In this document: positions 19,701 through 45,322 of the stretch, piece by piece | Numbering within the stretch: the first letter of the stretch is position 1 | How the letters are laid out: every line of letters begins with the position of its first letter | Origin: Mugilogobius chulae | Taxonomy: Eukaryota | Assembly (NCBI GenBank): GCA_046056395.1 | Contig: CM100125.1 | Location: 45,077,576 to 45,141,575 of the forward strand | DNA: 64,000 nucleotides | Reading direction: 5' to 3' | The notes under the pieces: generated by a model | Database searches by the model: none | What the model was told of the DNA's origin: nothing | Seen by the model: the letters and a program-made list of their open reading frames with translations, nothing else | Position numbers and translations under genes: made by a program

Positions 19701-20177
19701 AGAGTGGAGGAGGTATGCACAGTGTAAAGGGCAAAGTGGTGCACTGTATTGAAAAGGTTAATGCCATTACTCAGGAAAAGCCAAACAGCTGCAGTCATGC
19801 CGACATATACAATCATACATAATAAATATAACATAATGTGCTCTGCTGGGGTTGTGGCTGTCAAAAGTCCTCGCATGCTACCACTTTATGTTGAACAGTG
19901 GCAAGACAATTCAATGCATATGAGCAGTCACAACCTTTGCACTGTCGAGCCTAATGATGTTACCATTTTTTTGAAATAAATAACTTAAATAAAAAGATTT
20001 CTATGCTTTAATAAAGCAGCGCCTGATTTGCACAATCCCTTATTTCCAGCTTGAAATAATATTCCAGACTGTTTTAAAGAGCATGTTTTTTGTTTGTTTT
20101 TTTGTACTTTTAACTTAAATATTGAAATATTTATATTTATAGTGGAAATGACAGGTTAGGCATATTTTTATAAAACA

Positions 20178-20345
20178 CGAAGAACAGGATTATATTTAAG
20201 ATTTCACCAAACATTTTGCTTGTTTTCACCTACATTGGCTATTTTTATGAGATTTGTAGTTGTTTTTTGTCCAGCAATACTACATACGTATGTAGAGGGG
20301 AACCCACAACTGTTACCTAGCAACCGCACTGTAAATGTGGGCTAA
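20178..20345 (+). repeat. dispersed repeat, copy A (copy B at 25752-25897 abuts the hAT element)
   Basis: The two copies share gatta(t)...tt(c)accaaacattttgcttgtt...ggctatttt...ttttgtcca(g/a)caa...acaactgttacctagcaacc. Confidence 0.6.
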
Positions 20346-21516
20346 AACTCATTAAACACATTAAATTAGTAGACACACAATCAGCAGCTCTGCTCTGTTG
20401 CTTCAACTCAAACAGCGTAGAGGTGATGACGCAAATCAATTGACCCCAATGGCAGAAGTTTCACTTTTATGGATAAAATGAGCTAAACAAGCAATTTAAA
20501 AAAAAAAAAAACATGAGAAAACAACTGATTTGTGTCTTATAAAGCTTTTTTAAACAACTTTGGCCATGTGAGATTATATTTCTCAAATTACTATATTCGT
20601 AGACTGAATTTGCTATACAAACTCCATCACTTGCCGATGTGACAGATGCACCTCCGCAGTTAAGTGAAGCTATACCTTTTATTTGGTGTTATTCATGTAA
20701 TTTGTCCGCTTTTCTCACATGTAAAAGTGGACGTTTGGTGGTCACTAGAGCCTTAAAAGATGCATAAGATCAGAAATCTCTTGTTGAAGTTCACTAGCTG
20801 TTAGTTAGTAACAAGGCTCTGACCTTTGCTAAATGTTGGTCTCTATGCTAACAGCTATAGGAAAACAAACAGCTCGGGATTAGCTTAAATCTTACCGGAC
20901 TAGCTCAAATGCCAAGTGTTCGAGAGCATCAGAGTCGGACTGCGTGTCTACTAATTACATGTCTAAGGCCAAAACCCACATAAATGACACTATATGCCAA
21001 CACTATAAGTAAATCATGGGTGTAGAACAAGTATAGTGGAACAAGTATTTTACAATGGGGACCTCAAGGACACACAACAATAAAACATTTTGAGTAAAAC
21101 CATCTCCAAAGCAGCTGAAAGGGAGGTACAGTTACAAAGACTGAATTGAGAGCTGGACATAAAGCTGTCTTTGTAAAATGAGATTACTTTACTGGCCAAG
21201 TCAAAGGTGCAGGAGATTTGTTGAGTTTGACACAAGAAAAAGGAGGAGAAAGACTTTGCAAGACAGATAAAAGCCGATAAAATGTTTCAGGTTTTTACCA
21301 CTCAACATATAAAACCCTGTCGCTGTTGTGTATCAATGAAGATAAATGCCAGTGCACTGAGGTCATAAGTTTGAATGAATGTGGCTGGGGAAAATGCATC
21401 TACTTAAGCAAAATAAATGATGGCTAAAAGCATCACGAAACAAAGGCTAACAAACTGGCGGTAAAAGCAAACTGAAATGCATTAAGAAATTCCTACAAAA
21501 ACACAATAATGGAAGA

Positions 21517-21536
21517 TGTGTGTGTGTGTGTGTGTC
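21517..21536. repeat. (TG)10 microsatellite
   Basis: tgtgtgtgtgtgtgtgtgtg. Confidence 0.95.
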
Positions 21537-22111
21537 CTTCCCCAGAGTCACTGAGCCAAACACAGATGTCCACACACCACCATCTGTCCGTTTAACCAAG
21601 GTAAAACACAGATAAGAAAACACGCTTTTGTTTTGCATGGTGCCAATTAGGGAGGTCACAATATTCCATTTTAGTTTTTCGTTTAATACCAGACAAAAGT
21701 CACAATTTAGCTATTATTTAGGATTACAACTGTCACGACCAAACAACATTCAAATCTTTATTTTTGTTAATTCTCATTGTTTAGCAAATGGCTTTTACTC
21801 AAATCTGTGACCAGTTTTGACACATTAAACTTATGAATAGAAGATTCTTCATGTGACAAAACATTTAGCATGCACTTAGTTTTAATATAGATTGATAGAA
21901 AAGACCTAATTTTAATCTAAATTGCAATATTCTATAGATTGAAAGACAAAATTTGCTTCTGAACACATTTAGTCATGGGCTTTTTTTGGCCAATACCGAT
22001 ATCTATTGTTTGACCTCCAGTTGTAGAAAGCCAATATTTGCCGATATAATATCTGGAATTTCATAACAAGGCTCAAACTAAACATGCAAACTGGAGAGTT
22101 CTATCTTTATT

Positions 22112-22260
22112 AGGGTTCAATGGGCAACACTGTGGCATAGTAGTTAGCTCTGGCACAGCGGTTAGAGTTCACATGTTCTCCCATATCTGCATAGGTTTCC
22201 TCCAGGTACTCTGATGTCCTCCTACCACTAAAAACATGTCCAATGCCTCCTCTCCAGGAC
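22112..22260 (+). mobile_element. DANA-like tRNA-derived SINE fragment (internally deleted)
   Basis: ACTGTGGCATAGTAGTTAGCTCTG...GTTCACATGTTCTCCCATATCTGCATAGGTTTCCTCCAGGTACTCTGATGTCCTCCTACCACTAAAAACATG parallels the DANA head and core (GCAGTGGCGCAGTAGGTAGTGCTG...GTTTGCATGTTCTCCCTGCGTTCGCGTGGGTTTCCTCCGGGTGCTCCGGTTTCCCCCACAGTCCAAAGACATG). Confidence 0.6.
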
Positions 22261-24018
22261 TGCAGAAGGAAATTAGCTGTAAAACTAGACACAAAGCACA
22301 ACATTGTGCTTAATGTAATTGTACGTTGTCCTTAATAAATATTACCTATATTTCAACATTTAGAACATTGTGAAGATTATGTTATTATGTTATTTGAATA
22401 TTGTACATAATCTAACCAGAACTTTTTTAAACATATGTTTTAATGGGTATATACAGAATCTATGTATCAGGAGGACATGCATTATATTAAGCTCAGAATA
22501 TCAGGATTTATGTTATTGTGATAAACTTGCCTGAACACCAATGCTTTAATAGTTAGAAGCAGTAAAAAACTGATTACCACCAAGTCGGCTTAGTTGATTT
22601 TAGTGCTTATTACTTTAGTGATACAGTGAATATTGGCAGATCCAAGGCTGAAGGTGTGGGTGGAGTGTGGCAGAGCACTATTGTAACTCTGGATAGTGAG
22701 AAGGGGAGCGCACTGCCATAGCCCAGACAGCTGCTTCTTGTTCATTTGGAAGAGTGTAGCCTTGTCTATGAATGGTGATTATGAGGCAAACAAAAGGGGC
22801 ATTTAGAGACAAAAGCAGGTTTGGAGTGAATGGGTCTGCTCCGTTTACAGCTAGACTCTGCCTCGATCCAAAAGCACTTTGAGAGAGCCAATATGAAGTA
22901 ATTATTCAGGAAAACTAGAACGCAGGAAGAGAGGAGCACAGAGGGGCAGATAGGATTGGTTTGGCTGCGTGTGTATAGAGAGCACCAGCCGATAGCACCA
23001 TCTGAATTCTGAACAGGCGCTGCACGTCTGGCTTACTGTTGCCTTCAATAAGAGCTGGCGCAGAGAGAAAAGCTAAGACAAGACAGAAATTCAGCTGTAC
23101 AGAGGCAAGAAACAGTGGACGGAGCATTTACACACACGGCGATGTTCAACCCATCGCTACAGGCCAAAGTAACAATGGAAACCAATCACATCGCACAATG
23201 GCAAAAACATACCATGAACACGGCTTCACAAGCTGGATATCTGTAAAGGTATCTGGCACAGTAAGCAGCTTTACTTTCTACAATCTAAAAAGGTAAAGAC
23301 ATGAGATGTGATTCTTTTTAAATGATCTTTCAAGAAGTCATAAAGTGTCACTAAATCAACTTTTGGCTACTAAACTGTGTATTGTTTTAGTAGCAAACTT
23401 GAAAGGTCAAAATAAGACAACTGTGAGCTAAATAATGGTTTTATTTTGTTTTGTTTTTGTGTGTTATTTTTACCACCAGTAGCTGTATGCTAGTTGTTGT
23501 TAGCATTATCAAGACAGCAAAATTCCATTTTGATTTCAGAAAATTGTGAACTGTGCTTTTAAACTTGTTGTGGTGGAAAAATTAAGAGGAGTGAATTGAA
23601 AATAATCTTTCTAATTGATAAACAACTTTTTTGCAAAAATTAAGTACAGTGCTTCAAACTATTTTGTATACCAACATAAAATCTAGTTTACATTTTATAC
23701 TTTAAAGGCTGAAAAATTAATCAAAAGATCGGGAGAACGAAATTAGTCATGTCAAATAGTCATTAATTTATTGATTGTGTTTTTTGAACTGATAGCTTCA
23801 TAAACAATCCTCTGTCAGCTTGGCTTGGACCCCACCTTTAATGAGCACAAAAATGACCAAAAACAAAACAAATCTTGAATATAAACTGTTTTAATTGATT
23901 GCAAAAGAGCATCTAATTATTATGTGTGACCCTACCCCAAATCATCTTCATCATCTTACCTCTCGAATCTTGTCTCGTTTCTCCTTGACGTCTGGTTCTG
24001 GTGGTTCCCCATCACTTA

Positions 24019-24221
24019 CTCCCACCACTTGGGGCATCGGGACGGGAGGTAAAGGTTTTGGCCCCGGGTCTTTCTTCTTCAAGTCTTCCACCACCTTGCT
24101 CTTCTCCGTCTGGATCTCGGCCTGGAGCTCCTCGCGGGACTTTCGCAGCTTTTCCTTGGCCTCCTGCAGCGCTCGCTCGTGGTCTGCTCGGATCTTGTCC
24201 CGCAGGCTCTCCTCGTCCTCT
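24019..24221 (-). CDS. man1a2: man1a2 exon 2 (stem-region coiled coil)
   Basis: The acceptor is tgtttgccccctgcag|AGAGGACGAGG and the donor is GTGGTGGGA|GTAAGT. It encodes (R)EDEESLRDKIRADHERALQEAKEKLRKSREELQAEIQTEKSKVVEDLKKKDPGPKPLPPVPMPQVVG, matching the MAN1A2 stem (human ...REEEERLRNKIRADHEKALEEAKEKLRKSREEIRAEIQTEKNKVV...PLPPVPIPNLVG). The phase is compatible with exon 1 (AG + A = Arg). The region is GC-rich, so several spurious overlapping track ORFs appear. Coordinates are +/-1. Confidence 0.8.
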
Positions 24222-25898
24222 CTGCAGGGGGCAAACATAACAGACACGTCTCTTAGTATTCAGCATGCCGCATATACAACTCTGCTTATAGGAGTCACAG
24301 AAGAGTAGTCAAGGCAAAGAGAAAAGATCAAACTGGATCAAGGTTGTCTTCATTTCAAATGTGATTCCTAGACAATATAACTAGGGCTGAGCAGTACCAT
24401 ATCGTATATCATACGTATATCGTGATGTAAAGTTCAACATTGGAATATTGAGATGTACAGTAAATGCGCGCACAACACCTGATTGTCCTATCAGTTGTGA
24501 CAGGTAGATTGTAGATAATTCTGACCATTTCTCTGGAAAAAAAAGATGTGTTAAGTGGAAGCTGAACTTGTAGCTAAAACTTAGTCAGAAATAAGTAATT
24601 ATTATAAAAGCCATAATTAAGATACCTTGGGTATCTTTTGTGTTTATAAATTTGCTTTGACATGCTTGATCAATCACTGCTTCTGAATGTTTATTGTTTT
24701 ATTGAATGTGTATTGTTTTATTTTTATTTCCTACTAATCATGTTTGCTAAATTAATCATCTTGGGAAGTCCTCAGAGATGACTCTTCTAGTGATTTTGGG
24801 CTATATATAAAATAAATTGATTTGATTTGATTTGATGAATTGTAGGCCATATTGTCCTGCCCTAGCAACTAACTTAAGCATTCAAAGCAATAACAAACAG
24901 CACTACACTAGAAACTAATTCACAAACCAAATCGGCAATTTAAACCAGCTACCAACAAACAAAAAAAAAACAAAAATCTCTAAATAGATTCACAACTAAG
25001 CAAGCACAGAACCCAGTAATTAATCACAAATACATCTGACAAAAATACGCTAGTTTAGCAGCAAAACAAGCGGTCTGATCCATATGTAGAGCAGCTCATT
25101 ATAAACCAGACAAAAGCCCGAGTCTGTAATAGGAAACAAGTTCACTTTTCTCTGCATCGCGCTGTTACATCACCACCAGGAACTAGGACAGGTGTGCGGA
25201 AAAACAATGAAAAGACGCTGAGAGAAACATCATCATCTGCCCCGTCCTGTCGAGTCTGCGGCCTCAGGAGGTGACGGCACATGTCTGTCTCGTCACGCTG
25301 TGGGGCAAGAACAATAAAAACAAACACAGAGGGGAGCGGAGGTGAAGAAAAGGAGCACCAATGACACAGGACACCGGGACTGACAAAGTTGCAGAACAAA
25401 AGAAAAATATGTGCAACTAAATCAAAAGCTAAATATTACAATTCAGTGTGCGCCGCTTGCTCAAGGGTAGAGGGTTGCCACATTTGAATAAAATAGTCCT
25501 TGACTGAAAGACAATAGCAATTTCATTTGTAATCATTTGGTTTCAGGGAAGCAGTGCAACGCAATGAATGACAAGCGTTGAACAGAATGGATATTTTAAT
25601 TCAGGTGCTGCAGAAAGAGTGTGGGATGGATCATTGTAATAACTGTAAAAAGTGTCTTTGATTGCAGTTGCATATGAATAGATGGTGTTCACATGACAAC
25701 ACAACATCCATAATCTCTATACCTAAAAGTGCTTATGATAGGTTAGACAGAGTGAACATATGATTATGATTTTACCAAACATTTTGCTTGTTAGTAACCA
25801 ATGTGGCTATTTTGACGAAGTTTAGAATTGTCTTTTGTCCAACAAATATGAGGTGATTCTACAACTGTTACCTAGCAACCTAGTAAATAGATAAATAG

Positions 25899-26563
25899 TA
25901 GGGATGGGACGAGATCTCGTGCCGCAAGATCTCGCGAGATCAAACTGTCTCGATACGGTGCGCACACGTACTCACTGTCTCGTGAGATTGTTCCATGGTC
26001 ATGAAATTAAGTTTTGTATCTTTGAGCAGCTGTAGTAAATATTCTCCTCCACACACAGACTTGTAGTGGACTTATTCTGACAGAAAACTGTCTAACCTCT
26101 GTCTCAGTTTTTATTTCGTAAAGATAGGACCAATATTGACAGAGATAATTAGTAATTAGGAAAGTTAGCACAAAAAATATATAATCATCAAATATACGAC
26201 ATCGCGGGAACAGCGCGGTGTTTTTCATACTAAAACACAGTTTAAAATAGATCCACAAAGAGAAATTTTGGCCTATATCATCAATAACTGTAAGGGGGCG
26301 GAGTCTGAGCTACAGGGGAGCGGATCAATTTCAGTCAAAACTCATATCGTTCAAATAATAAAAATTCAAGATGATACACATAATAAAAGGTAAAGCTAAA
26401 CTAACAATAATAAATAATACAAATCCAATTTTGTAATTTGCCTTGTTTAAATTCTAAATTGAAACAATTAATGCAAATTATTTAAAAATCCTGTCTCGTC
26501 TCAATCTCGTGGAGCCAATCTCGTGTCTCGTCTCGCTCGTGAATCTGTCTCGTCCCATCCCTA
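25899..26563. mobile_element. hAT-type nonautonomous element (about 665 bp) with 8-bp TSD
   Basis: Perfect 15-bp TIRs TAGGGATGGGACGAG / CTCGTCCCATCCCTA. Flanking 8-mers are ataaatag (25891-25898) and ctaaatag (26564-26571), 7/8 identical and fitting the hAT nTnnnnAn TSD pattern. Subterminal tctcg/cgaga repeats are present. Confidence 0.75.
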
Positions 26564-28287
26564 CTAAATAGATGTCAAAATCCACATGACACAACAAATG
26601 GTAATAACACACTGGAGAGATTCTGTTTTTTGAGATTTTGCTTGTCAATGACTTCAAACTCTTTTTATTTAAAACAAGAACACTATTACACTAAACTAAT
26701 ACAAGATTAGAAAAAGCTCCATATTTCTGTAATTATTTGATCTATTCACATGCAGCAAAAATTCAATTATGTGTGTAGCAATAAGTAAATGTGACATTTC
26801 AGTTCAGTTACCTCTCAGAAAACTAAATCCAAAAGAATAACTGATGAAAGAGCCATATAAGAAAAATAATGACATGTTTGTGAAGTTTATCCCAAACTAA
26901 TGATAAGATTCTACCTATTATCCTATGTAATTCCTACTGCTAGAGCATTGCCTAAGCTGTTAGATTCAACAATAGTTCACTTTTGATATTGTGAGAGAGA
27001 TGACACTTTGCATTGACATAGATTTGTTTGAAGTGATTTTAGTTGCTTTTTTCTGTTTGTGAATGCAGTTAACGTGGGCTGAACCTGACACGTTGGAGAC
27101 CCACTGTTCCCATGTGGACGCAGCTGTACGCCTCTGCAAACTCTAACACTCAGAATATTACACATTTATCATGCACTAAACACGAGGATGAATATGACAT
27201 AAACGTTTTAGAACGAGTTTAGTGCATGTCAACATTATGCAAAGGTTAATGTAAATTTGTCTTGGAAACAATGGTATGTTGTAGCAAGCAGCACTTTAGC
27301 ATCAAGAGTTCATGAACAAAAGTAAACAGCAAACAAAACACACAGTTATGTTCAATAAATATAATGAACGACAAATGCAACTGCTCCTCATGCCCCAAGT
27401 TGAGCATTCATTTTTCAGTTAGTTAAAGGTACTCTATTCGATTTTTAAAATAAAAATACATTAAAATAATTTTCTGCCCAGCACAGATCTATTTTCAATG
27501 TAAAATTAGTCTGCATGGTCTGATTGCTCATATTGCTAGCATACTGACACATTTATATATACGAATATATATGCCCGTTAAAGACTCAAACCGTTAACAC
27601 CTCATTAAATATGCGCGCGGAGAATTAGCGCTTAATCAGCGGCGATGCGTGAACTTTTACACACGTGTTTGTGATGTTTACTTTGAAAACGTTTCACTTC
27701 CTGCAGTGTATTTAGTGAGCACTGAGCTGGTTTTAACCAGGACTATCCCAGAACTGGACCAGGTCTTATCAGGACTGAAAATGTTAGTTACCTGTGTAAC
27801 TATAGTTCTATGAGTAGCTAAAGCTTAAAACATGCTGGTTTTATAAATTTCTGTTCAGCTCTGATCCTGAAAATATCAAAACTGATGAACACTGCTAATA
27901 TTATTATGTAAAACTGAGTTTATTCATTGAACTACAAATCAGACATTTTAAATATAATTTTGTGCTAAAATTATGCATTTAAGACAAAATACACCAAAAT
28001 GTGCAGAATTGTACACTCTACAAAATGAAGAACCTTAAATATACTTAAAGAAATGATGAAAACTGGTTAAAATAGCTTATTGAACTTTAGGTGTATGATT
28101 TAGAAATTAAAAAACAACATAAAACATAATTCAATTGCAGCAACTTATAGTAATGTTTGTGGGTCTTTTCAATCAGAGAAAATAACTTGAAAATCTGGCA
28201 CAGTTAAAATAAAGACTCTTTATTTGAATTACATTTTTTTTGCTTTTATTTAATTTTGTTTTTTGCATGCAAATTGGTTTGTAACCC

Positions 28288-28722
28288 AGCTGTTGTCAGG
28301 GAAACACACAGAGATGCCAGACAGTATTTATGAGTCTTGTTCTAAAGCTAAAGAAAGCACTACTGCAGTTTCAGTATGTTTCTTTTACTCTCAAACAGAC
28401 CATACCATCTTTCATCTCCAAAAAACGCCCAGGATTAGGGAGTTAGGCGTCTACAAATTTGGTACAAAATGCCGAATTAGTTAAGGGGGATTGGGGTGTT
28501 TTAGGTGGGATTGTCAGGGAAACACACAGAGATGCCAGACAGTATTTATGAGTCGTGTTCTAAAGCTAAAGAAAGCACTACTGCTGTTTCAGTATGTTCT
28601 TTTTTACTCTCAAACAGACCATACCATCTTTCATCTCCAAAAAACGCCCAGATTAGGGAGTTGGGCGTCTACAAATTTTGGTACAAAATGTCGAATTAGT
28701 TAAGGGGGATTGGGGTGTTTAG
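28288..28722. repeat. tandem duplication of an approximately 213-bp unit (2 copies, about 95% identical), each ending in one minisatellite unit
   Basis: ttgtcagggaaacacacagagatgccagacagtatttatgagtc...caaacagaccataccatctttcatctccaaaaaacgcccag(g)attagggagtt(a/g)ggcgtctacaaattt(t)ggtacaaaatg(c/t)cgaattagttaagggggattggggtgtttt is seen twice, giving the duplicate track ORFs 28263-28484 and 28491-28703. Confidence 0.85.
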
Positions 28723-28955
28723 GTGGGGATTGGGGTGTTTTAGGTAGGGATTGGGGTGTTTTAGAAGGGATTGGGGTGTTTTAGGTTGGGATTGGGGGTG
28801 TTTTAGAAGGGGATTGGGGTGTTTTAGGTTGGGATTGGGGTGTTTTAGGTTGGGATTGGGGTGCTTTAGAAGAGGATTGGGGTGCTTTAGAAGGGGATTG
28901 GGGTGTTTTAGTTAGGGATTGGGGTGTTTTAGGTGTGGATTGGGTTGAGTTGGGA
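28700..28955 (+). repeat. G-rich 20-21-bp minisatellite (GGGATTGGGGTGTTTTAGNT)n, about 12 units, G-quadruplex-prone
   Basis: Direct reading: ggggattggggtgtttaggtggggattggggtgttttaggtagggattggggtgttttagaaggg.... It has runs of G3-G5 with 3-8 nt spacers. It sits immediately 3' of the nested ORF's stop on the minus strand, and a single upstream copy is at 28484-28503. Confidence 0.9.
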
Positions 28956-29777
28956 CATGAGGATATCTTCGTCGGAGTCATCTTCCGTCGACTCGCATCC
29001 ATCGTTCAACTGAGGCTGAATCAGGAGACGTTGTAGCCTCAAAGTCTGTTTGCTCCTCCTATTACGGTTCTTACCTTTTGGAGTTATGGGCTCCTCTTCC
29101 TGTTCCTCTATTGGAGCGACAGTCTGGAATGATGACTGTTCCCGGTAACGATATTGGTGAACTAAAGGAACTTGACTGTCTCTGCTGTATCCTCTTGAAA
29201 AATTGTTTCGTCTGAATTCATTGTTGTAATTGTAACGATAGCTGTTCCTCCTGTTCCTACTTATGGGCTCCTCTTCCTGTTCCTCTATTGGTGCTACAGT
29301 CTGGAATGATGACGGTTCCTGGTAACGATATTGGTGAAGTGCAGGAACTTGACTGTCTCTGCGGTATTCGCTTGAAAAGTTGTTTTGTCTGAATTCATTG
29401 TTGTAATGGTTGCGATTATTTCTATAATATTTGGGTCGAACTGAAGGTTCTCTTGGGAGTTCAGTGTTGTTGTTCTCGACTTTGTTTGGCTTTTCTTCTT
29501 GTCCAGTGCAAATTTTAATCTCCTGTTGTTCTATAGGAATCTCTATAGGTAAGCACTCGTCATGTTTTTCGGCGATGTTCTCAGAGTTTGTTGGCATTGA
29601 AAGTGCACTTACCTCGATTAGATTATGATGGAGTACCCTAGGCTCTCTTGAGGTACTCTGGGCCATCCTCTCGTCTTCTGTTGGGGTCTGACTGCCTGAA
29701 ATTCTAGTGTTCCAGTGTCTACCCTTTTTGGGCTGGCAGGAAACATTTCTTTTTGACTCTCGAGTCAGTTGGGGAAG
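28929..29777 (-). CDS. second open segment of the same nested locus (first ATG at 29666; 245-aa track ORF) with 60-aa tandem repeats and an acidic C-terminus
   Basis: It is in the same frame as the 315-aa ORF but separated by stops. The intervening 29773-29980 is open only in the +1 frame (IYRNYSTITESSDIPPRISQLPEPEEEPQASTTAERNDDKVSQKSTQETSEPSEPMQSDALTLNDSNFPN), which implies two compensating frameshifts or splicing. It contains 2 x 180-bp repeats (RDSQVPxxHQYRYxEQSSFQTVAPIEEQEEEPI) and ends ...ESTEDDSDEDILMSQLNPIHT*. Confidence 0.3.
   Translation of the reverse strand, partial: LPQLTRESKRNVSCQPKKGRHWNTRISGSQTPTEDERMAQSTSREPRVLHHNLIEVSALSMPTNSENIAEKHDECLPIEIPIEQQEIKICTGQEEKPNKVENNNTELPREPSVRPKYYRNNRNHYNNEFRQNNFSSEYRRDSQVPALHQYRYQEPSSFQTVAPIEEQEEEPISRNRRNSYRYNYNNEFRRNNFSRGYSRDSQVPLVHQYRYREQSSFQTVAPIEEQEEEPITPKGKNRNRRSKQTLRLQRLLIQPQLNDGCESTEDDSDEDILMSQLNPIHT
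29065..29425. repeat. tandem 180-bp (60-codon) repeat, 2 copies
   Basis: ttatgggctcctcttcctgttcctctattgg(a/t)gc(g/t)acagtctggaatgatgac(t/g)gttcc(c/t)ggtaacgatattggtgaa... occurs twice in tandem at about 90% identity. Confidence 0.8.
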
Positions 29778-29984
29778 TTAGAATCGTTCAGTGTTAGTGC
29801 ATCACTCTGCATTGGTTCAGATGGTTCAGAAGTCTCTTGTGTGGATTTTTGAGAGACCTTATCATCATTTCTTTCTGCTGTTGTGCTAGCTTGGGGCTCC
29901 TCCTCTGGTTCAGGTAATTGGCTTATTCTCGGTGGAATGTCTGAGCTTTCGGTGATAGTGGAATAGTTTCTATATATTCACAAG

Positions 29985-30932
29985 TCAATGCTTTTGAAAG
30001 GAACTCTTCATCATTTGTTTCTGGCGTTGCTTGGTTTTGATTTTCCTCCTGCTCAGGCTCCGGTGTTTGCGTTGCCTAGTTGTATAAGCTTCAACTGTTT
30101 CCTGATTTTCTGGCTTTTGATTTTCCTCATCCTGCTCCGGTGTTTGCATTGCTATAGTTTTATCACCTTCATCCTTCTCTGTCTTCTGTGGCGAAATTTT
30201 AAAGAGGGACTTCTCTACTTCTCCAAAGCTAAATGTAAAATCTGGTTTATCACCTGGGAAGCTAAAATCCCAGTGGCCTGTTTTTTTGGCTTTTGTTTTT
30301 TTTGAAACGACAGGTTGATTTACTTGTATTGGTTCACTCAGGTCTATCTGGGCAAGTCCAGGTTCAAGGAGATGGTCCTCTGGATGTACCTGAACTTGTA
30401 TCGGATGACAAAGGTCCATTTGTACAAGTTCAGATACTGGAGGCTGGACTGCTAGAAGCTCCTGAACTTGTGTTGGTTCGCACAGGTCAACTAGTGCAAG
30501 TTCAGGTGCTGAGGGATTGTCTTCCACAAGTACCTGAACTTGTTTTGGTTCACCCAGGTCTACTTGAACAAGTTCAGATACTGGGGGGTGGACTGCTGGA
30601 AGCTCCTGGACTTGTTTTGTTTCGCACAGATCAACTGGTGCAAGTTCAGGTGCTGGGGGATTGTCTTCCACAAGTATCTGAACTTGTTTTGGTTCACCCA
30701 GGTCTACTTGGACAAGTTCAGGTGCTGGGAAATATTTTGCCCGAAAAACCTGAAGAACAGTTTTTAGCCTTTCAAGAGCTGGCCACTCGTTGGTGTCGTC
30801 CAAACAGGTGGTACAGGCTCTTGTTGAAGGTGTAGACACTTCTTCAGGAGTCTCAGAGTGTTGTATTGTGGTGTTGTTAGATAACATCACTGTAGTTCCT
30901 GTAAACTTCTTTTTTCTCCTGCCCTTTGCCAT
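29985..30932 (-). CDS. hypothetical repeat-rich acidic protein (315-aa ORF) nested in man1a2 intron 1; could be a gene, pseudogene or TE-borne ORF
   Basis: ATG at 30932-30930 in context gaaATGg. The N-terminus MAKGRRKKK is basic. There are 3+ tandem 41-aa (123-bp) repeats of the form PELVQVDLGEPKQVQILVEDNPPAPELAPVDLCETKQVQELPAVHP, each built from two 20-aa half-repeats. The tail KTKAKKTGHWDFSFPGDKPDFTFSFGEVEK...QDEENQKPENQETVE is unique and acidic, followed by a stop. It is on the same strand as the host gene. No homolog recognised. Confidence 0.35.
   Translation of the reverse strand: MAKGRRKKKFTGTTVMLSNNTTIQHSETPEEVSTPSTRACTTCLDDTNEWPALERLKTVLQVFRAKYFPAPELVQVDLGEPKQVQILVEDNPPAPELAPVDLCETKQVQELPAVHPPVSELVQVDLGEPKQVQVLVEDNPSAPELALVDLCEPTQVQELLAVQPPVSELVQMDLCHPIQVQVHPEDHLLEPGLAQIDLSEPIQVNQPVVSKKTKAKKTGHWDFSFPGDKPDFTFSFGEVEKSLFKISPQKTEKDEGDKTIAMQTPEQDEENQKPENQETVEAYTTRQRKHRSLSRRKIKTKQRQKQMMKSSFQKH
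30340..30730. repeat. tandem 123-bp (41-codon) coding-phase repeat, about 3 copies, with a 60-bp sub-period
   Basis: The near-identical unit ...cacccaggtctacttgaacaagttcagatactggggggtggactgctggaagctcctggacttgttttgtttcgcacagatcaactggtgcaagttcaggtgctggggg... recurs directly. Both strands are open (track ORFs 29985-30932 minus and 30293-30835 plus). Confidence 0.8.
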
Positions 30933-31210
30933 TTCTTCTGGTCTCTAGCTATAAAGATTGTTCTCACTGGTCACGTGGGATTTGTTTCTTCGATATCTCT
31001 GCTCGTCTGTTTGCGTGTTGTCGCTTCTGTGGTCTGAGTTCAAATGACTGAGTCTTGTACGTCACACAGACTTATAGACTCTGCTCTTTGTGACATCACT
31101 TGTGCTTGACATCAAAGACATCGGAATGCTCTGTGAAATCAGAGAATTTGTATCCAAGTTCTAAATTCTAATCGTCATGACAATATAGTTTCTATGGTAA
31201 CCTACTGTAT

Positions 31211-31229
31211 AATAATAATAATAATAAAT
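31211..31229. repeat. (AAT)6 microsatellite
   Basis: aataataataataataa. Confidence 0.9.
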
Positions 31230-34200
31230 ACATTGGCTACAAATACATACTGGTCAGGTCCTTCTGATGCGTGCATATTAATGGACGACTAATCATAATA
31301 CAGTCTGGTTTAACTTGGACAATATACCACAAACGGTCGGATAATTCATTTTACAGCCAAACAAACACAACATTATCAGACGGGAAAAGACACTGCAGAC
31401 TTATTCTTACCTGAATAAAAAAAGATATTTGTGCTGAGGGAAACAGATTTTATGTTATTTTAATGCTTAAAAAATAAATAAATAGGGAAACTGATATAAA
31501 AAAGACAATTTTTTTTTTATTTTCATGTAGTAATGCCACTGTGACTAAATTGCGTACTATGACTATGATTACTTCTGTATTGCCAACTCACCTCGATAAT
31601 CGTAGCTGATGTTTGTTGTAGTCCTATAAAGAATAGAAGTCAAGGACATTGCATCATGTAAACATGATACAATGCATTAATGTCAATAAGTGAAGAATAT
31701 TGATGAAATAAAAAGGGTCATTACAACAGATCAATGCCATCGTTCACCGCAAGTCAATCTTGTTAAAAGTATTGCTGCTACAACCACAGAGAGCACCGAC
31801 TCTTAGGGAAATGATCTTTGCTTCAGTTTTTAATGAAGCCCAAACAAAAAAATGTATTCTAATCAGTTATACGAGACAAATGTATAATCCAGACTTTCCC
31901 TTTACATATTTATGTTGTGATTTTGAATGTGGGGCCAACACAGCTTCTGAGTTACACAACATTGCCCTGAAAACACCTCATAAATATTCATATACTGCAA
32001 CTCCAGCGCGTCTGACTTTAATTGATCGAAAACATATTTTTGCAACACCAAAGCTGCAATTACAGCTGTACGCAAGTGTGATAGCAGGAGTTTGAAAATG
32101 TGCATAAAATGTTTTGTTTTTGCCAAAAATTGTAACAGGATCACATCACAAAAAATGGCCAGCCCTAGTGACATCTTGAAAAAGGCGATAGTCACAGGTG
32201 TAGCTAAATACAAAGTCATTCTGGACACAAATGGGCCACTAAAAGATACTATTTCTTTGTCACTAAAAGCAATGGACTTTTTTCACTCGCGCTCACTGCT
32301 TCTTCTCATTCTGGTTTTACTCTGAGTCATTATCCAAGTAAACCCATCGCGGTGTTACCAGCAGCATCACGTCCCATATGAAGTCAGATTAGGAGCAGAT
32401 CCCAGCAGCCTGCCTCCATTACCTCCACAAAGACGTGCGTGGGCTGAGGCTAAAATGGACCCGGGCGCTTTCTGTGTCTCAACTTTTTAATATCTCAACA
32501 AATCTGGCTGAGAGTAGGGTTTTTTCCTACTACTGTACTAGACTTTTTTTTTTACTAACCACAGCCTGGAACACAATGAAAACAGACCTATGTCGAAGCA
32601 AAAGCTCAGAGATGTTCGTCCTTTTATCCAGATTCAACAATACTCAAGAAGGGGATCAAACAAAACAATCAGACTTATGTCAAAGGCTTTGATATTCACT
32701 TCATAATTGATGCTACATGAGGGTTTGCTTTTAAATCCATGCTCCAAGTCCAAAGGCAGTGCATAATAATTCAGTTAACAACAACTTGAAATAACTATTA
32801 AAGTGGCTTCTTAGCATTGATTAGATTGCACAATATTAAAGTGATTACTGCAATACTTCCAGATAAATAAAAGTAAGTATGAGTGTTGTTTGAACCAGAC
32901 TGGATTCAGTTGTTTTTAGCCAGCTGGTTTGCATTGGATTCTCGCTGTGTTTTTTGCAAATTTGACTTTGGACAACAATACTGTTGCTGTGCAGAAAATC
33001 ACAAGATGTTTCATAAATGTGGGTGAAAATGTAACTGCAAAACAGCAGCCCATACTATATGTTGGTCTACAATCAAACTATCAGAATGCAGCTAATGAAT
33101 AGACTTATAGCTTGTCATTGTGAAAAGAGTGAAATCGGAGTAAGATGAGTGTGAACAGCCACAAGGAGCAGCCCTGTGGGTTTTTCCAGACAGGTGCATC
33201 CCATGGGCAGGTGCATGTCTGTCTGTGTGTGCTGACGGTAGATTGTCATTCAAGAAGGTACATGTTTCTTTTGGACAGAGGTCATTTGAGATTATAAGCG
33301 ATACACCCCAGAATTTGCAAGAGGACCAAGATCCATTCTTTAAGCAAGTTTGATTAGATCAGTTTTCTAGTTTTTATTAATACACAAAAAATTTCAGACT
33401 TTGAAAGATATTCTGGTTTGTAAACCATATATTACTGCACTAATCAACATTGCACAGATTTATTTTGCAATATATTGTGCAGCTCTATTTATCTAGCCTT
33501 GCCGCCCCACTGTTGCCATTACATCATATCCTACATCCTCCTCCAGTGTCGTCATGGCAATGGTTGAAACTGTAACAAAGCGGGCTGGTGCTGAACATAC
33601 TTTTTAGTATTGGTTTTAGAAACATTGGGCTTCTGAGTAAAGCAGTGTAGGAAAGATGACAGGTAACCATGGCAACCAAAAAAGGGACACACTCACACAG
33701 ACAGAGGTCACCGCGAGCAAGTCGCGGCTTAATTACTTAATTTACCCATTAATGCAAAAGAGCGGGACTGCTGGGCTACTTGGCACTGCAGATAAGCGTT
33801 GAGTTAGCAGACAATAACGCTGAACTGAACATTTTATTTCACATCTCACTACACTGCTTAGCACATTACCAAACAAGCTATACATGATGCTACAGAGTAT
33901 TCTTCTCACACAGACCTGTCAGGACTGCTCTGAACAGTGCCAAACCCTGTGATGACCTGCCATTATGTGGAAATTGTTAAATTATTCAGAACTTTTTGTT
34001 GACTGTAGCTTCAAGCTGATGTGAAAAACAAACGTACATCAAAGAAGATTTTTTTTAATTATTATTACAACTGCTTAGTATTTATTGTTTGCTATCAATT
34101 ATAATTACTGATACCAGCAGATAGTGCTGGGTGATATGACGATATCATATCATGGGGACGATAGAAAAATGTCTATTGTGCCATTTCTCTTCGTTTCGAT

Positions 34201-37200
34201 TGTTTCCAACCTAATTTTATCAATTATGACAATATATACGTGCTTTGTGACATAAGTTAAAGCATAACTTCACAAAGTGTGAAGGAAGGAAGTGTGTGAC
34301 CTTAACGACAAGTGGTGGTGGGCTCAAAACAGAGCAGGTTTCTGAATCTACTGAATGAATGTAGTTTGAATTTACTGTCTCTATACATTTTCAAAACTCT
34401 TGAAATACCTGAAGTACCGCTTTAAGAAGCCCTTCTTTTGGACTGAACTGGAGAGCTCTCAGGGGAGCAGGGCTCTTGAGTTTTGAGTGTGCGAGACGAG
34501 CTGCCTCCGGCCTGACACCAGACGTCCAGAGATAAGTGTTGTGAAGAAAGGCTGAGGTGGTCGAGCAGTGCAAACTTTGCTTCTCGTCAATGAGGATTCA
34601 ATAGATTCTTAAAGTTTCAAGTATGAGAGAACATTCGCTCTGAACCTTGAGCTGATGACATATGACAGTCAGAAGAAAGCCAACAGCATTCCCCTTGGCG
34701 AAATATAGCACTTCTAACTCTCACTGACTTGACAGGTTTAGAGTAAAGCAAATTAATTTTAATACAATCCTTAGTTCTTCTGGCATGTCTAAAAGACATT
34801 ACAAACTAGTGTTGTCATGAGTCTTTATGAGGAAAAGCTCATTAGTAGACTGCATTAACACAAGAAAAATAAGCATCAAGCCATTTAAATACCAAGACAA
34901 AAGAACATCCAAGTGACAGTGGTTTAAATAGATTTTTGTTGAATTGACACAGCTGTTTTAGACATCATTATTGGTATACTCTAAAACAATATTTTTTTGC
35001 CAATGTCACACACCCTGCTACTACACAAGCCTAATCTCAGTGAAAGTGAAAACCTTGTGTTGTACACTCAGGACAAATGAATGCAGCAGAGCCACTGCAC
35101 AGGTTGAGATAGAACAAGATTGTTCCAAGACTATTCAAGTGTCGACAGCCCTGCTGCAAACATTGCAGTAAACAAAGTACACATTATCCACACAGTAAGA
35201 GCACCTGAGTCCCAGTGCTCGAGGGAAACATGCATGTTCATGCCAGTCTGTCCTACATTTGTTTCGATCCAGCTAATGGTATATCAACATATAAAACAGT
35301 GCTAGACAATGTTCAAAGCAACAATAATGGCAAACAAAACCTGGGATATGAGCTTGAACAAAAACAGCTAAAAGCTTTTTGCTGAAAGCTGCTGGCAGCT
35401 ATTTATTGAAGAAATGCATCAGGTCAATAATGGACAACACATGCTGATTTGTGGATTTCAGTGTTGTCAGTATATTGCATAATTCATATGCAGACAGATT
35501 TATTTTAACTTAAAATATTGCTGCAGAAACAAAAAAAAGTATATTTCTTCAAGCTTGTAAACTGCAGCGTCCTAAACAAGGTCTACAATAGAGAACCTGG
35601 TGACTCTGTCTTTGCATAATGGATCCATTTTACCAACAGAACCACGGGTACAACCAATAATAGCATGGAAACATTCACTAAAAGTCACCCTGACATGTTT
35701 CCTGCTGGTTCCCACTGATCCCAGTTTGATCCCAGCCTGTCCAAAACTCGCCTCTGTCACATCCACACAGGGACTGACGTTTTGAGAGAGCACCTGTGAA
35801 GCCTTTTCCGATCCTTGAGCCAATTCTCACTGCTTTCATTAGGGACACCTATGGTGTGGACACAGCTGGGGTTTTTAACACAAACATGGGATTATTTGAA
35901 ATTCAAAACTCAAACTGCAAGACTAATTGCTCATTTGGCTCAGTAAGAATGGACTTTGATCATGTTTCTTTACCTGACAGGAGGACACACACTTCAAAAC
36001 ACAAGCACAGGTGAAAATTTGTTAGGTGGTGGTTCAAACTGTCACTAGTCAACTGATGATGTATTTCTATTTCCAAGCCTTTGAGTCTTATCACAAAACC
36101 CTGTGCCACACTCATGCAAACCAATTCAAATAAGTGTCTCCATTTTCTTTGCCTCGTTTCGTGAAGCTGTCTTGTTAAAGCCGAGGCTGAGACACAGGGG
36201 AGCATACAAATGAAACTTTGAATGGCCACTTACCTGAGCAGGCCCTCAAAAACTACTTCCTTCCCTTCATCATTCATCCAAAACTGTCCTAAGAATAGCC
36301 ACAAACAGCACACTGCCTTCTCAGCATGAACAATGTCATTACACTAATATATAACTAGGCTTTTAAAAGGTTTTGTACCAGAAAGAATAGGATATGAAAG
36401 TTATTTAAGACGTCATAGCCTTTTGCATTATTGTGAAATTCTATAAAAAGTCAAACAAACGACTCTCTGCAGTGTGATGAAAGTACAATAAACAAGAGTT
36501 GTACAAATCCTGAAAAAACATTAGCTCTCATGTCAAAATCAATCACACTTGTTTCTATAGGTTTATAAGATTTATCGAGATTCATATCAAACTCACAAGT
36601 GAATGAAAATGTTCTGTTTGTTAAAAAAAAACACATTTAGATATTTTCTCAAATCGCGCAGCACAAGACTTTGGTGGAAAGAACAAACAGACCAAAAATG
36701 CTTTGTTGTTATTTTCACAAGGCTTTTATCACTGTGTTCCAATATCCTTGTTCTTGAAATTACAAAGAAATTCTTGTAAAAAAAAAAATAATAACTCAAC
36801 ATTGTTCTCAATTCTGAGTATTTGTTTTCCTTTCTTCAAAAACATTATTTATTAAGCTAACATTACGGTCAAAGTTTTGGCAAGACACAGCTTACACAAA
36901 AACGATGAAGTGGGATTACGAACACCAAGCTCACGAACCAATCTAGTTTTAGCTGCATGTTTCCACGTTATGACTCATGACTATTACAAGACAAATCAAA
37001 AATTAAATGTCATAAAGAAAAGTCGGAAATGAGACGTGTTGGATGCAGAACTGATAATGGCCGTCGTGTTAATGAGCAGATTGAATTTGATGAGAAGTCC
37101 ACTGCTGCCCGTGTCTCTGAACACCTGCGCCTGATCAAATCTCACAACACACTAATTAAATAGGACCAGCGTGAGACACATTGTACCAGGACAAGTCTGG

Positions 37201-37449
37201 ATGTGGCTATGTCTTTTATGAATTCTGATGTTGTTACATTGTGTATAACAAGGACAAACTAATTAGACAAAGCTTTTTGGATGAATTGTTTTCTATTCTG
37301 GATAATGACAAAAGTTAATCTCCTGTAATGAGGAAAGAAGTAAACAAGTGATGGCGTCACTTTTGATGTGTAAAGTCAAACATTGAATCTGTTTATCAAT
37401 GGGTGAGGTAACAATTTATCCAAATCAACAGAAAATACAAAGCTATACC

Positions 37450-37657
37450 TAGGGCTGGGCGATCTGGGCAAAAATATAATCAAGATATTTTTCTCATATT
37501 GATCAATCTCGATTTTTATTTCGATTTGACTTTGTTCCAAACTACACATTTTTACTGACAAAAAATTGGTTTTCGATCTTTTGATTCAAAACCCACCACC
37601 AAATAATTGACGATTTGTTTCGATTTGATCTCTAAATTTTTTATAATGGCCTACCCC
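37450..37657. mobile_element. short hAT-like MITE copy
   Basis: The left terminus is tAGGGCTGGGCGATCTGG and the right terminus ggcctacccc is degenerate. Flanks ctatacct and tatacctg share 7 nt, suggesting a TSD. The same TAGGGCTG(G/A)G terminus recurs at about 24385, 34126, 37992 and as ...cagcccta at 39793. These are further, mostly fragmentary family members. Confidence 0.5.
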
Positions 37658-40600
37658 TATACCTGACTATCTTGTTTTTGCAATGATGATGTATTGCAAA
37701 GAACTTGTTTGGACCTCAGCAACACAAAATATGTCAATACAATTCAGTATTTGCTGCTTTTACAGCAAGTGTTCTTAGTATCCGCTTACAAACCTAATCC
37801 ATCAAATAGGAATCCATGACAACTAACGGACTACGGATGGAAATTAGCACGTTGCTAAATCTGGTGCAGCCATCTTTTTTAATGTAACTGCACATTGTCC
37901 TTTAAACAAATAAATAAATAAATATTACAGGGCACTATACACGTTTCTTTCATGCAGTAAATTGAAATTTGTTTTGTCCCACTGGGTTATAGGGCTGGGT
38001 ATTGCAAAGAGTCCCACAATGCAAAACGATACATACTGATACAATTTCTTATTTCACTTTTTTATAATTCATCCTTCTTCAACTAGAATCTAGTTTCAAT
38101 GCCAGTTCAAGTGTGCATTAGTAGAATTTTGTGACAACTCTAAACTTTTAGCTTCAGAGCTTTTACAAAACTAAGATTTTTTTTTATTTATTTATTTGAC
38201 TGAAGCCCTATATTCAACTTCAACTGTAAACTTCTGAGTGAATAAAAAGTAAATATAAAAAAAGTCAAGTTTCTGTAAAAATAAAAACATACAACATATA
38301 TATTTACCTTTATTTAAATGATTATGGCAATATGAACATATGTCAACAAAAATCGTCAAAAAACTAATGTTGTGAAATGGCTCTAAGGTAATTGTGATAC
38401 AAGTTTTTTTTGGCCGAGTGCCCACCCCTGCTCACAACTAACTAGATTTACTTTACAGCTGACAGCCGGACAGAGACAGAAATGGTATCCAGGATCCCAC
38501 TAAGCATGATAAATAACTTAACTTTGAAGCTGGCCATGGCCTTTAATATGATCCGCAGGGCAGAGATTTATGGCCACATCCGAGCTCCAAAGCACAGTTA
38601 TCAGCCTGCGCCACTAACAATAACTGGCAGAGCAATAAGAGGCAAAAGCAGGTTACAGCCGGTCAAGGCACTTACTCCTTTATGTGAAAGATGTGGTGTG
38701 AAAACAGGCTTGTTCTCTCCTGAGCCCGCAGCAGTGTCTGAGCATAAATGACTCATATGGGAACGAGGTTTATCAATGCAAGAGTCGAGTGTGAAATGTC
38801 CACCAAATGGCACTGATCAGGGAAGACTTAAAAGGATGTTCAGTTTTTTAAGCTAAAAAGTGGCCTGGTGCACAGCTTGAAGACAAAAACAACATTTGCA
38901 TTAGGAATAGACCGATATATTGCCGGCTGATATTTTGGGCAGATATTTCGATTTGTTTGTACATCAGCCATATCAGCTATCGGTCTCAGTTTGGCCGATA
39001 TCTGATCAGGAAGTAGTTTGGGCTTTTCCTCTGTGGGAAGCCACACTCACAGTGATCAGCTGAGTCTTGGTTGGTTTGAAACGAAGACTTCTTTTATCCA
39101 TCTCTCCATTCCTAGTCTGCAGGCTTGATTTTATCATTAACATGACTTTTAAGTTTTATTCTTGTTCTATGACTTTGGCTGCAGCACAAGCTTTAAAAAG
39201 TGCTTGTTTCCTTGTCAATATGAACAATATGAATGTCTTTCATGATGCTACGAAATGATTGTTTCTTCGGCCAAAAAGTATCATTACATTGTGAGACACA
39301 CATGATGTATGGTGGTGAATAATAGTTTAGGTTGAAGGTTTTTCTGGTTATACTATCTCACCCCTGCTATTGATATTGGAATCGCTGACAACATTTTGAA
39401 AGAAACCCCATTTCGGTCCATTTCTAATTTACATTGATTCATAAAGTCAAGACACTCTGCCAAAAAATGCATGATGTAATGATACTTGTAATGTGTCATT
39501 ATTTCAAAACAATTATATTTAATCAGATTTCTTTATTAAAGCATTTCTACTACTGATGGCTCTACGAAATTGCAGCCCACAAAACTGAGACCATCAAATT
39601 TAGTATTTTAGAACAACAACAAACCAAAACAGAATACACACATATCAAATATTGAATTTATCGTGAAATTGTAACATTATTGTATTGTGGGTAGGACAGG
39701 CCAATGGGGGCGGGGCAATAAGGCCTAAATAATAAATAAATGTAATGCCTCATATGCTTTGCAATGAGGCAATAGTGCTCACTCAGCCCTATTTGTGAGC
39801 CATGTACGAGACAACACAAATTTGACCTTGTAATGTCTTGTTTTATTCAACAGCAGACAAGCCTTGTGTTGTGATGCAACAAAATAGAGCTCAACAAGTT
39901 ATTGATTAATTGCAACTAACTGATCATTGGAATACTTGTTGATTAATTTAGAAAATGAATAATCATTTACATCTATACACATCCCCAAAGGCAAATCATG
40001 TGCAGAGAAAGGTTTAAGGTTGAAAAGTTATCTTATTAAAAAGGTGTGTTTTTTGTTGTAAATTATCTTCTCAGGCGACAGTTTCCTTTTAGTCAAAAAA
40101 TAAAATTAACACTATCATTCACAGGCTGAAAAAAAACATTCAATATTTAATATTCAACAAAAGCTTACACACAAAAAATATAAATCTAATAAAAGAATGA
40201 AGAATAATGTGGGGGTATTCAAGCTAAAGAAACTCATCGGTGGCACAAAATAGGTTTGGTCATAATGTGATGCTGCTGCAGCCATCATTTTACAGTAACT
40301 GGTGTTTTTTGGGGTTTTTTCCAATACTGAATCACTTAACTCACACTTAAACTTCACTAGTGTTTACAATATGATGGTGAACTTTGATATCTTACAATGC
40401 ATCCAAACAGAAACAGTAAGTTCTTGGCGAAGGTCTGGTTGTGTTTAAAAATCACATGGAGACGGGTACAGTTTGTTTACAGCGCTGATTCACCGGCTTC
40501 ACTGCGGATGACAACAACACACTGCTCAACTTACATCAGCCGGGTTTGCATTCGGTTCTCCAGTAAGAATCTGATCCTCTCCAACACAGGCAACATGAGG

Positions 40601-45009: not shown

Positions 45010-45322
45010 CTATGTCTGGTCTCATCGTGTCCTCCTTGTCCATGTATGACAACTTGTCCCGAGGCATGTTTGCCCTCTTTTGGGGAGTCGATGTGTGGGA
45101 TAAGCACGTCCTCCAGGCCCAGATCAAAGCGCTTATGCTTAGAGTTGTCCGGGAGGAAGAAAAGGCCCCGAAACATAACGTAATGAAGGCACTGAGAATG
45201 AGCAGCAGGATGAATTTCTCCGAGAGCCTGAGTGTAGCCCTGTGGTGGGGAAACGAGGAGGTGCCCGTCGAGAGGGTGGGTATCCTGCGGCCAGATAGTG
45301 GCAGGAGGGCTGGAGTGGTCAT
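45010..45322 (-). CDS. man1a2: man1a2 exon 1, coding part (Golgi alpha-1,2-mannosidase IB, GH47), with an internal 1-nt frame disruption
   Basis: The ATG at 45322-45320 has a reasonable context. The translation MTTPALLPLSGRRIPTLSTGTSSFPHHRATLRLSEKFILLLILSAFITLCFGA matches the cytoplasmic tail and signal-anchor TM of vertebrate MAN1A2. After a 1-nt shift the neighbouring frame reads FFLPDNSKHKRFDLGLEDVLIPHIDSPKEGKHASGQVVIHGQGGHDETRH, matching the next MAN1A2 segment. The exon ends at a consensus donor CATAG|GTAAGC (plus-strand gcttac at 45004-45009). Confidence 0.8.

Follow-up and report, generated by a model that had tools for sequence, protein, structure and literature searches.

The closest relatives of the gene described here form an uncharacterised family in GenBank, recorded for the yellowstripe goby Mugilogobius chulae as WMY93_020016, WMY93_014795, the pair WMY93_003803 and WMY93_003802, WMY93_011305, WMY93_014772, WMY93_001225, WMY93_023033 and WMY93_003077, with repeat numbers that vary from copy to copy. 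A further copy lies in a stretch of 64,000 nucleotides (nt) from M. chulae (GenBank assembly GCA_046056395.1, contig CM100125.1, positions 45,077,576 to 45,141,575), which is called the window below and from whose first letter all coordinates are counted. This copy is homologous to the WMY93_020016 family over its full length, and it has the same types of repeat, the same sequence of modules and the same conserved modules at either terminus; unlike the family members listed above, it is unannotated, sits within intron 1 of the man1a2 gene and carries three 1-nt deletions in the assembly. It is a real, unannotated member of this uncharacterised family of proteins, disordered by prediction and so far found only in the yellowstripe goby.

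Three better described systems invite comparison. GAGE, PAGE and SPANX, the mammalian cancer-testis families, are lineage-restricted, multi-copy, disordered and acidic; their proteins are small, and their genes have introns and stand mostly in tandem arrays on the sex chromosomes. The goby family is likewise lineage-restricted, multi-copy, predicted to be disordered, and acidic, and combines short conserved motifs with a variable repeat number, but it is dispersed and intronless, encodes about 670 residues and has no sequence similarity to these proteins. With processed retrocopies it shares the lack of introns, the distribution over many chromosomes, the position in an unrelated host intron, the frameshifts and a 3′ A-rich stretch with AATAAA. 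However, the window locus has neither a clean poly(A) tail nor a significant target-site duplication, no intron-bearing parent gene has been identified for the family, and the promoter-like sequence of TATA type found upstream is something that a retrocopy would not carry; unlike dead-on-arrival copies, moreover, the family has kept its frame open across 20-50% protein divergence. The likeness to a bicistronic retrotransposon of the LINE-1 type (ORF1p, spacer, ORF2p) is superficial, and consists of two open reading frames (ORFs) on the same strand with a short stop-bearing spacer. The second of these contains no endonuclease or reverse transcriptase domain, and the LINE-1-like layout is a frameshift artefact, since the "spacer" is coding in an intact paralogue.

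One intronless gene split by three missing bases

On the minus strand of the window stand two ORFs that begin with ATG, ORF1 (29985-30932, 315 residues) and ORF2 (28929-29666, 245 residues), in a common frame and with 318 nt between them. They are the sole ATG-initiated ORFs of at least 150 residues in the window; two others of this length start at TTG, namely a 180-residue antisense mirror ORF at 30293-30835 and a 248-residue ORF at 17579-18325. ORF1 opens with MAKGRRKKK from an ATG with G at −3 and G at +4 and contains the motif FTFSFGE, and ORF2 also starts with ATG in good Kozak context. Another frame is open in part of the gap (29977-29767) and encodes acidic sequence, ..LPEPEEEPQASTTAERNDDK... 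A first-pass annotation of the window had pointed out the two ORFs, the basic N-terminus, the Kozak-like ATG, the FSFG motif and the acidic gap open in another frame, all of which can be read in the sequence. ORF1 is beyond chance, because 315 stop-free codons are unexpected in AT-rich sequence and because paralogous proteins match it. Eight paralogous proteins (P0001-P0008) match ORF1 and ORF2 at E values from 1e-42 to 1e-106. The same annotation took the layout for a real protein architecture and not a random satellite, and this is upheld.

The two ORFs are joined by a ninth protein, P0099 (WMY93_020016, 717 residues), which is encoded on a further chromosome, 49.9 Mb long, and runs uninterrupted from 24-residue repeats through acidic repeats and the gap into ORF2. 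When P0099 is aligned with the three frames of window positions 30260-29600, its residues 321-362 follow frame 2 (30075-29944, E = 4e-10), residues 361-420 follow frame 1 (29950-29770, E = 4e-24) and residues 420-480 follow frame 0 (..NDSNFPQLTR..QTPTEDER[L/M]AQST..), and the third junction is crossed directly (NDSNFPQLTRG..QTPTEDERLAQSTPREPKV). The "start" Met of ORF2 is a Leu in P0099 and lies inside the continuous ORF. Relative to P0099 the window copy thus takes the path 0→2→1→0, each step being the shift produced by one missing base: the first at about 30077/30076 (context actA-GGcaa), the second at about 29950/29949 (in ccG-Gaaagc) and the third in the C-run 29774-29771, with four Cs instead of the required five. 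Addition of one base at each of the three sites gives an ORF of 668 codons with zero internal stops, and this repaired product aligns with P0099 over 654 columns at 62.5% identity (E = 0.0). Its coding segments, all on the minus strand, are as follows.

Segment A, 30077-30932, frame 0: the first 285 codons of ORF1, homologous to P0001, P0002 and P0099, with the basic N-terminus, a conserved helix motif, the 24-residue repeats, FTFSFGE and the first acidic repeat
Segment B, 29950-30076, frame 2: ATQTPEPEQEENQNQATPETNDEEFLSKALTCEYIETIPLSP, equivalent to P0099 residues 321-362
Segment C, 29771-29949, frame 1: ESSDIPPRISQLPEPEEEPQASTTAERNDDKVSQKSTQETSEPSEPMQSDALTLNDSNFP, equivalent to P0099 residues 361-420
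Segment D, 28929-29770, frame 0: includes ORF2, with homologues P0004-P0008; stop codon at 28931-28929

The basic tail of ORF1 (RQRKHRSLSRRKIK..) is acidic repeat read out of frame. P0001 enters the same wrong frame a few codons later than the window copy, and since it slips at a different place, its shift is independent of that in the window. ORF1, the gap and ORF2 are therefore one intronless gene, whose two-ORF look comes from three missing single bases, and intact members of the family have one ORF of about 670-720 codons; the window copy as assembled holds three frame changes. Among the options of the first-pass annotation, indels in a gene was the right one, although the alignment gives three indels and not two. 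Its A→B→A frame pattern is replaced by a path that uses all three frames, and its division into two separate ORFs is contradicted by P0099.

As to the family itself, the relatives of ORF1 number only three among 5.8 billion proteins, all from M. chulae: P0001, which covers the full length of ORF1; P0002, which is 83% identical to ORF1 and then enters the −1 frame of the repeats; and P0003, an ORF1-like fragment fused to an Ig-like gene model. The five relatives of ORF2 (P0004-P0008) are also all from M. chulae and lie on five chromosomes. WMY93_003802 (ORF2-like) and WMY93_003803 (ORF1-like) are neighbours and represent adjacent pieces of one copy, which shows that the ORF1 and ORF2 parts travel together. 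It was an exhaustive profile search with the ORF2 family (1.84 billion representatives) that added P0099, and it revealed no species besides M. chulae. The family amounts to at least nine loci on at least seven chromosomes; at least eight of them are paralogous loci that sit on other chromosomes and are not linked to man1a2. Protein divergence between the copies is 20-50%. The window locus is thus one copy of a dispersed, multi-copy, intronless M. chulae gene family. Outside annotated proteomes, no metagenome contig of the JGI matched the degenerate patterns for KQTLRLQRLLIQPQ and LDDTNEWPALE, and 65 pattern matches in the viral contigs of IMG/VR included no relative; a literature search on multi-copy intronless families of gobies returned nothing relevant. 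The expectation of a lineage-specific gene agrees with the data so far, relatives being found only in M. chulae, while a cyprinid origin, also assumed at first, does not fit a window that comes from a goby. Many near-identical copies across the genome had been named as the mark of a mobile element or satellite; the copies are indeed many and dispersed, but at their protein divergence they are not near-identical.

Modules, predicted product and selection

The gene and its immediate surroundings contain the following features, again all on the minus strand.

31058-31098: promoter-like stretch read in the sequence, with TGATGTCA (31098-31091), TATAAG (31076-31071) and TGACGTA (31064-31058)
30717-30821: conserved N-terminal module, residues 38-72, RACTTCLDDTNEWPALERLKTVLQVFRAKYFPAPE, 86% identical across paralogues against 57-69% in the adjacent parts
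30322-30733: 72-nt (24-residue) tandem repeats, about 5.7 copies, with a 144-nt superunit and a quasi-palindromic unit (Tandem Repeats Finder)
29865-30158: degenerate acidic repeats of about 26 residues (QTPEPEQEENQKPEN..), defined by the direct-repeat families D7 and D9 and by alignment to the repeats of P0001 and P0099
29067-29416: 177-nt (59-residue) tandem repeats, 1.8 copies (NNEFRQNNFS..QYRYQEPSSFQTVAPIEEQEEEPI) (Tandem Repeats Finder)
28932-29087: conserved C-terminal module, ITPKGKNRNRRSKQTLRLQRLLIQPQLNDGCESTEDDSDEDILMSQLNPIHT, first a basic patch, then an acidic Ser/Asp/Glu cluster
28705-28944: 21-bp minisatellite, 11.5 copies, beginning inside the last codons of the ORF (Tandem Repeats Finder)
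28293-28732: 218-bp tandem repeat, 2 copies, in the presumed 3′ untranslated region; one minisatellite unit ends each copy
28219-28264: A-rich stretch (28264-28234, 31 nt) and two AATAAA signals (28250-28245 and 28224-28219), read in the sequence

The protein accordingly has the order basic N-terminus, a conserved amphipathic helix, 24-residue repeats, acidic repeats, Asn/Arg/Tyr-rich repeats of 59 residues and a C-terminal module that is first basic and then acidic. The acidic repeats extend from the ORF1 tail into the gap and span frameshifts 1 and 2, and the 59-residue repeat is present in 1 to 4 copies in the paralogues. The repeat units differ from those first proposed: the 41-residue acidic repeats of ORF1 resolve into units of 24 residues, and the two 60-residue repeats of ORF2 are a tandem repeat as claimed, with a slightly shorter unit and less than two full copies. 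The 72-nt repeats contain inverted repeats within their units, and their sense RNA folds with a z-score of −6.6 against shuffles. The unit is quasi-palindromic on the minus strand (30320-30735, CTGAACTTGT ... ACAAGTTCAG), which accounts for the 180-residue antisense ORF on the plus strand (30293-30835); this ORF encodes a mirror-like PELVLV..VQVQ peptide, 34-39% identical to P0001.

At the 3′ end, the stop codon and the last residues NPI[HPS]T (28929-28944) are encoded by the first unit of the minisatellite, and since NPI[HPS]T is conserved in the paralogues, the family unit includes the start of the minisatellite, which is not a later insertion. Each 218-bp repeat also contains, on the minus strand, an ACGCC..GGCGT hairpin followed by six Ts (28420-28445 and 28638-28663), which is terminator-like and has no match to an Rfam family. 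The stretch 31098-31058 may be a promoter of TATA type with a site like a cyclic AMP response element, and a CACGTG stands further downstream at 30977-30972; the A-rich stretch with its AATAAA signals is the presumed 3′ end of the unit. Read in this way, the unit resembles an intronless gene that is complete in itself and about 2.9 kb long.

The repaired product has an isoelectric point of 4.8, and 45% of its residues are Glu, Pro, Gln, Ser or Thr. AlphaFold2 gave mean predicted local distance difference test (pLDDT) scores of 39.6 for ORF1 and 45.8 for ORF2, and neither model contained a fold fit for structure search. The only genuine helix comprises residues 49-67 (pLDDT about 67), inside the conserved N-terminal module; a long helix predicted for ORF1 residues 277-312 was disregarded, as it belongs to the out-of-frame tail. 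Pfam searches with ORF1, ORF2, the repaired protein and P0099 found no domain, all matches staying under the curated cut-offs, and phmmer and profile searches of the PDB sequences gave no match at E ≤ 1, so that the remark "no known family" in the first-pass annotation still stands. The protein is thus acidic and, by prediction, almost wholly disordered. It has basic patches at both ends (MAKGRRKKK and KGKNRNRRSK) and closes at the C-terminus with an acidic cluster of Ser, Asp and Glu. Judging from these patches, which resemble nuclear localisation signals, the product is probably a nuclear protein, and its action may depend on the two short conserved modules, in which case the variable repeats would be a spacer or a multivalent scaffold.

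Conservation is uneven along the protein. The last 52 residues, which form the C-terminal module, have 88% identity among paralogues, compared with 76% in the part directly upstream (Fisher p = 4e-4), and include 17 consecutive residues invariant in 6 copies; together with the N-terminal module they contrast with the other parts (57-76%) at Fisher p = 4e-4 to 8e-8, from cells that are phylogenetically non-independent. In a neutral simulation at the per-lineage divergence from P0099 of about 9%, 7.4 stops are expected and the probability of none is 7e-4; on the corrected path 0 were observed. The lack of stops and the uneven conservation imply that the frame was kept open through most of the divergence of the family. 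Selection has therefore kept it open, whether in copies maintained by the host or in the master lineages of a mobile unit.

Spread of the family and state of the window copy

At least nine diverged loci on at least seven chromosomes point to dispersal by transposition or retroposition, and the family probably spread either by RNA-mediated retroposition or as a passenger of an unclassified mobile element. The explanation that we favour as a whole combines a gene of an intact family, three deletions introduced by the assembly, and spread by retroposition or with an element; we regard it as reasonably probable, with substantial room for doubt. Several observations weigh against it. Frameshift site 1 (actA-GGcaa) is outside any homopolymer. 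A three-switch open path occurs in 7-11% of shuffles of the gap (p about 0.07-0.11) and is thus only mildly unusual; this test is too weak alone, and the argument for a single ORF is carried by the alignment with P0099 instead. The ratio dN/dS between the internal repeats of the window copy is 0.4-0.96, weakly below 1 and from small counts. Finally, the absence from other species may stem in part from repeat masking in other annotations.

The strongest competitor, a serious one that we nevertheless consider less probable than its negation, takes the ORF as part or cargo of an unclassified transposable element, its protein as serving the element, for example as a nucleic-acid-binding factor like gag or ORF1p, and the window copy as one insertion. 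Such an element would account for the number, divergence and dispersal of the copies, one fragment of which has been exonised into the Ig-like gene model P0003, and for their absence from all other annotated proteomes. The window copy is intronic, its unit includes the 3′ minisatellite and tandem repeats, an open frame held across diverged lineages is also seen in transposon subfamilies, and about 43-53% of the M. chulae genome consists of repeats (PMC7782490; PMC12415946). However, no reverse transcriptase, endonuclease, integrase or transposase domain occurs in the ORF, and a Pfam search of the stop-free segments of at least 45 residues on both strands of the flanks (24300-28700 and 30950-37000) found no transposon domain; the test for domains of non-LTR elements (LTR, long terminal repeat), that is, reverse transcriptase or endonuclease of long interspersed elements, was likewise negative for ORF1, ORF2, the repaired protein, P0099 and the flanks. 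Within 20000-40000 no direct-repeat pair that could represent LTRs brackets the locus. The inverted pairs that do bracket it are weak and AT-rich (for example 34 nt at 71%) and include no convincing terminal inverted repeats, and the sole candidate target-site duplication, a 10-mer at 31146-31137 and 28180-28171, is at chance level (about 0.7 expected). Rfam (24000-36000, E ≤ 0.1) and tRNA scans found nothing. There is also no obvious reason for a non-autonomous element to keep an ORF of 2 kb open.

The second competitor, possible but rather unlikely in our estimate, accepts the three deletions as real, and the window copy would then be a recently disabled pseudogene, a dead family member lying inert in man1a2 intron 1. 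The sole sequence at hand contains the three frameshifts, one of them at the non-homopolymeric site 1, and several paralogue models are frameshifted as well. Three real indels imply about 25-30 substitutions, with which zero new stops would be unremarkable, and even at 3% divergence the simulated probability of no stop is 0.075. Against this stands the host gene. Exons of man1a2 were placed on the minus strand by tblastn with a human MAN1A2 query (exon 1, 45322-45009; exon 2, 24223-23957; exon 3, 13766-13659), and exons 1 and 2 flank the locus, which thus lies within intron 1 on the man1a2 strand, as had been said at first. These exons are identical to the M. chulae protein WMY93_013904 at 172 of 172 residues (P0013, 4-175), a match that settled the species; a search of the 64 kb for the DANA short interspersed element of zebrafish found none. 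In exon 1 (45160-45176), however, four Ts stand at 45163-45160 where, according to the Man1a2 of four other fish (CFGAFFFLPD), five are needed, and the missing T shifts the frame at codon 54. WMY93_013904 starts with MFRGLFFLPD.. at an internal ATG (45176-45174), without the true N-terminus, and this false start is a consequence of the exon-1 frameshift. The missing T is probably an assembly error. Three Logan contigs found through Man1a2 matches (L001-L003) have about 79% DNA identity to the window, come from other species and are uninformative.

The defect in man1a2, an essential and otherwise perfectly conserved gene in this exon, is of the same kind as those at the locus: all three shifts of the latter are of the 1-nt-deletion type, and the rates are similar, since man1a2 has 1 indel in about 690 nt of conserved coding sequence and the locus 3 in 2004 nt. 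Assembly errors at about 1.5 per kb would alone explain three shifts. Paralogue models, too, combine frameshifts with few substitutions (P0008, with at least 4 shifts, P0002, P0003 and P0099). The M. chulae assembly was built with DBG2OLC from 29x PacBio RSII reads (PMC7782490), and the fragmentation of its gene models is documented (PMC12415946; PMC7782490). One independent annotation, made on GCA_016735935.1, lists 53,446 genes, whose proteins average 315 residues, and has a protein BUSCO of 67% against a genome BUSCO of 92%, for which the species was excluded from the study (PMC12415946). The three deletions are thus most likely consensus errors of an error-prone long-read assembly, a judgement that we hold with some confidence and short of certainty. 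If they are errors, man1a2 intron 1 would contain an intact nested gene with its own putative TATA-type promoter and polyadenylation signals.

A further reading goes beyond the favoured one, and we put it forward as a speculation with little probability: a young orphan family would have arisen from a hairpin-forming, quasi-palindromic minisatellite and been selected to stay open in dispersed copies of one goby lineage, with a nuclear, disordered product that works by way of two short conserved modules and an intact copy in the window. Such an ORF might be selfish and non-enzymatic, depending on help in trans for its spread, or might be a host factor of recent domestication.

That the locus consists of two cistrons, is a spliced gene using donors of the GTAAGT type, or supplies alternative exons of man1a2 is very improbable. 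Both ORFs have an ATG in good Kozak context, the locus and man1a2 share a strand, and donor-like strings occur at 29616-29608 (GAG|GTAAGT) and 29078-29070 (AAG|GTAAGA); of the two GTAAGT-type donors of the first-pass annotation both are thus present, the second with GTAAGA in place of GTAAGT. However, both strings fall inside conserved codons that the paralogues translate (LIEVSG, and PK[GR]KNRN in the forms PKGKNRN and PKRKNRN), and P0099 carries the whole gap in one frame. This continuity and the translated donor strings leave splicing, a bicistronic layout and man1a2 exons unsupported, and the paralogues, being unlinked to man1a2, also speak against the last of these; the basic tail that would end a first cistron is out-of-frame repeat, at which P0001 shifts in a different place. 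Weakest of all, and hardly credible, is the idea that a stop-free satellite gave rise to the ORFs as a by-product, or that they are the relic of an endogenous virus, since, even though the quasi-palindromic 72-nt unit is open on both strands (with the 180-residue antisense ORF) and tandem repeat makes up about half of the ORF, about 330 codons lie in unique sequence that is open and conserved as well, neither of the two modules with the highest conservation is repetitive, neutral decay would have brought stops, and the viral contigs of IMG/VR contain no relative.

Neighbouring observations and meaning

Other observations concern the remainder of the window. In man1a2 intron 1, perfect 19-nt inverted repeats (TAGTAGGGATGGGACGAGA and its complement) stand 633 nt apart at 25896-26566, and this segment looks like a small non-autonomous DNA transposon of the miniature inverted-repeat type. 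Two direct copies of a repeat of about 130 nt (20191-20325 and 25759-25880), 76-87% identical and 5.6 kb apart across the exon 2 region, are probably another interspersed repeat. In man1a2 intron 2, where the 248-residue TTG-start ORF lies (17579-18325), a stop-free frame of 249 codons on the plus strand (17576-18322) is antisense to man1a2, rich in Cys, Ser and Leu, longer than chance readily gives in AT-rich sequence, and without a Pfam match. At 60273-60653 on the minus strand, a stop-free segment (..DGTYTVSYTPEEIGSYSVWV...) matches the Pfam Filamin/ABP280 repeat (E = 5e-9) and probably represents an exon from a TRIM45-like gene next to man1a2 on its upstream side, which fits the mammalian TRIM45-VTCN1-MAN1A2 neighbourhood.

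The findings give no sign of a new mechanism. They mean that ORFs split by frameshifts in this goby assembly should not be taken for bicistrons, splicing puzzles or decaying genes before the reads are checked, the host gene man1a2 itself being mis-modelled for the same reason. In the existing annotation the family is scattered as "hypothetical proteins" of 150-320 residues, each in fact a fragment of a longer protein of about 670 residues. Put together, the family offers a clean example of a disordered protein that is multi-copy, taxonomically restricted and maintained in frame, and it could serve studies of the birth of orphan genes from repeats or of unclassified mobile DNA in gobies.

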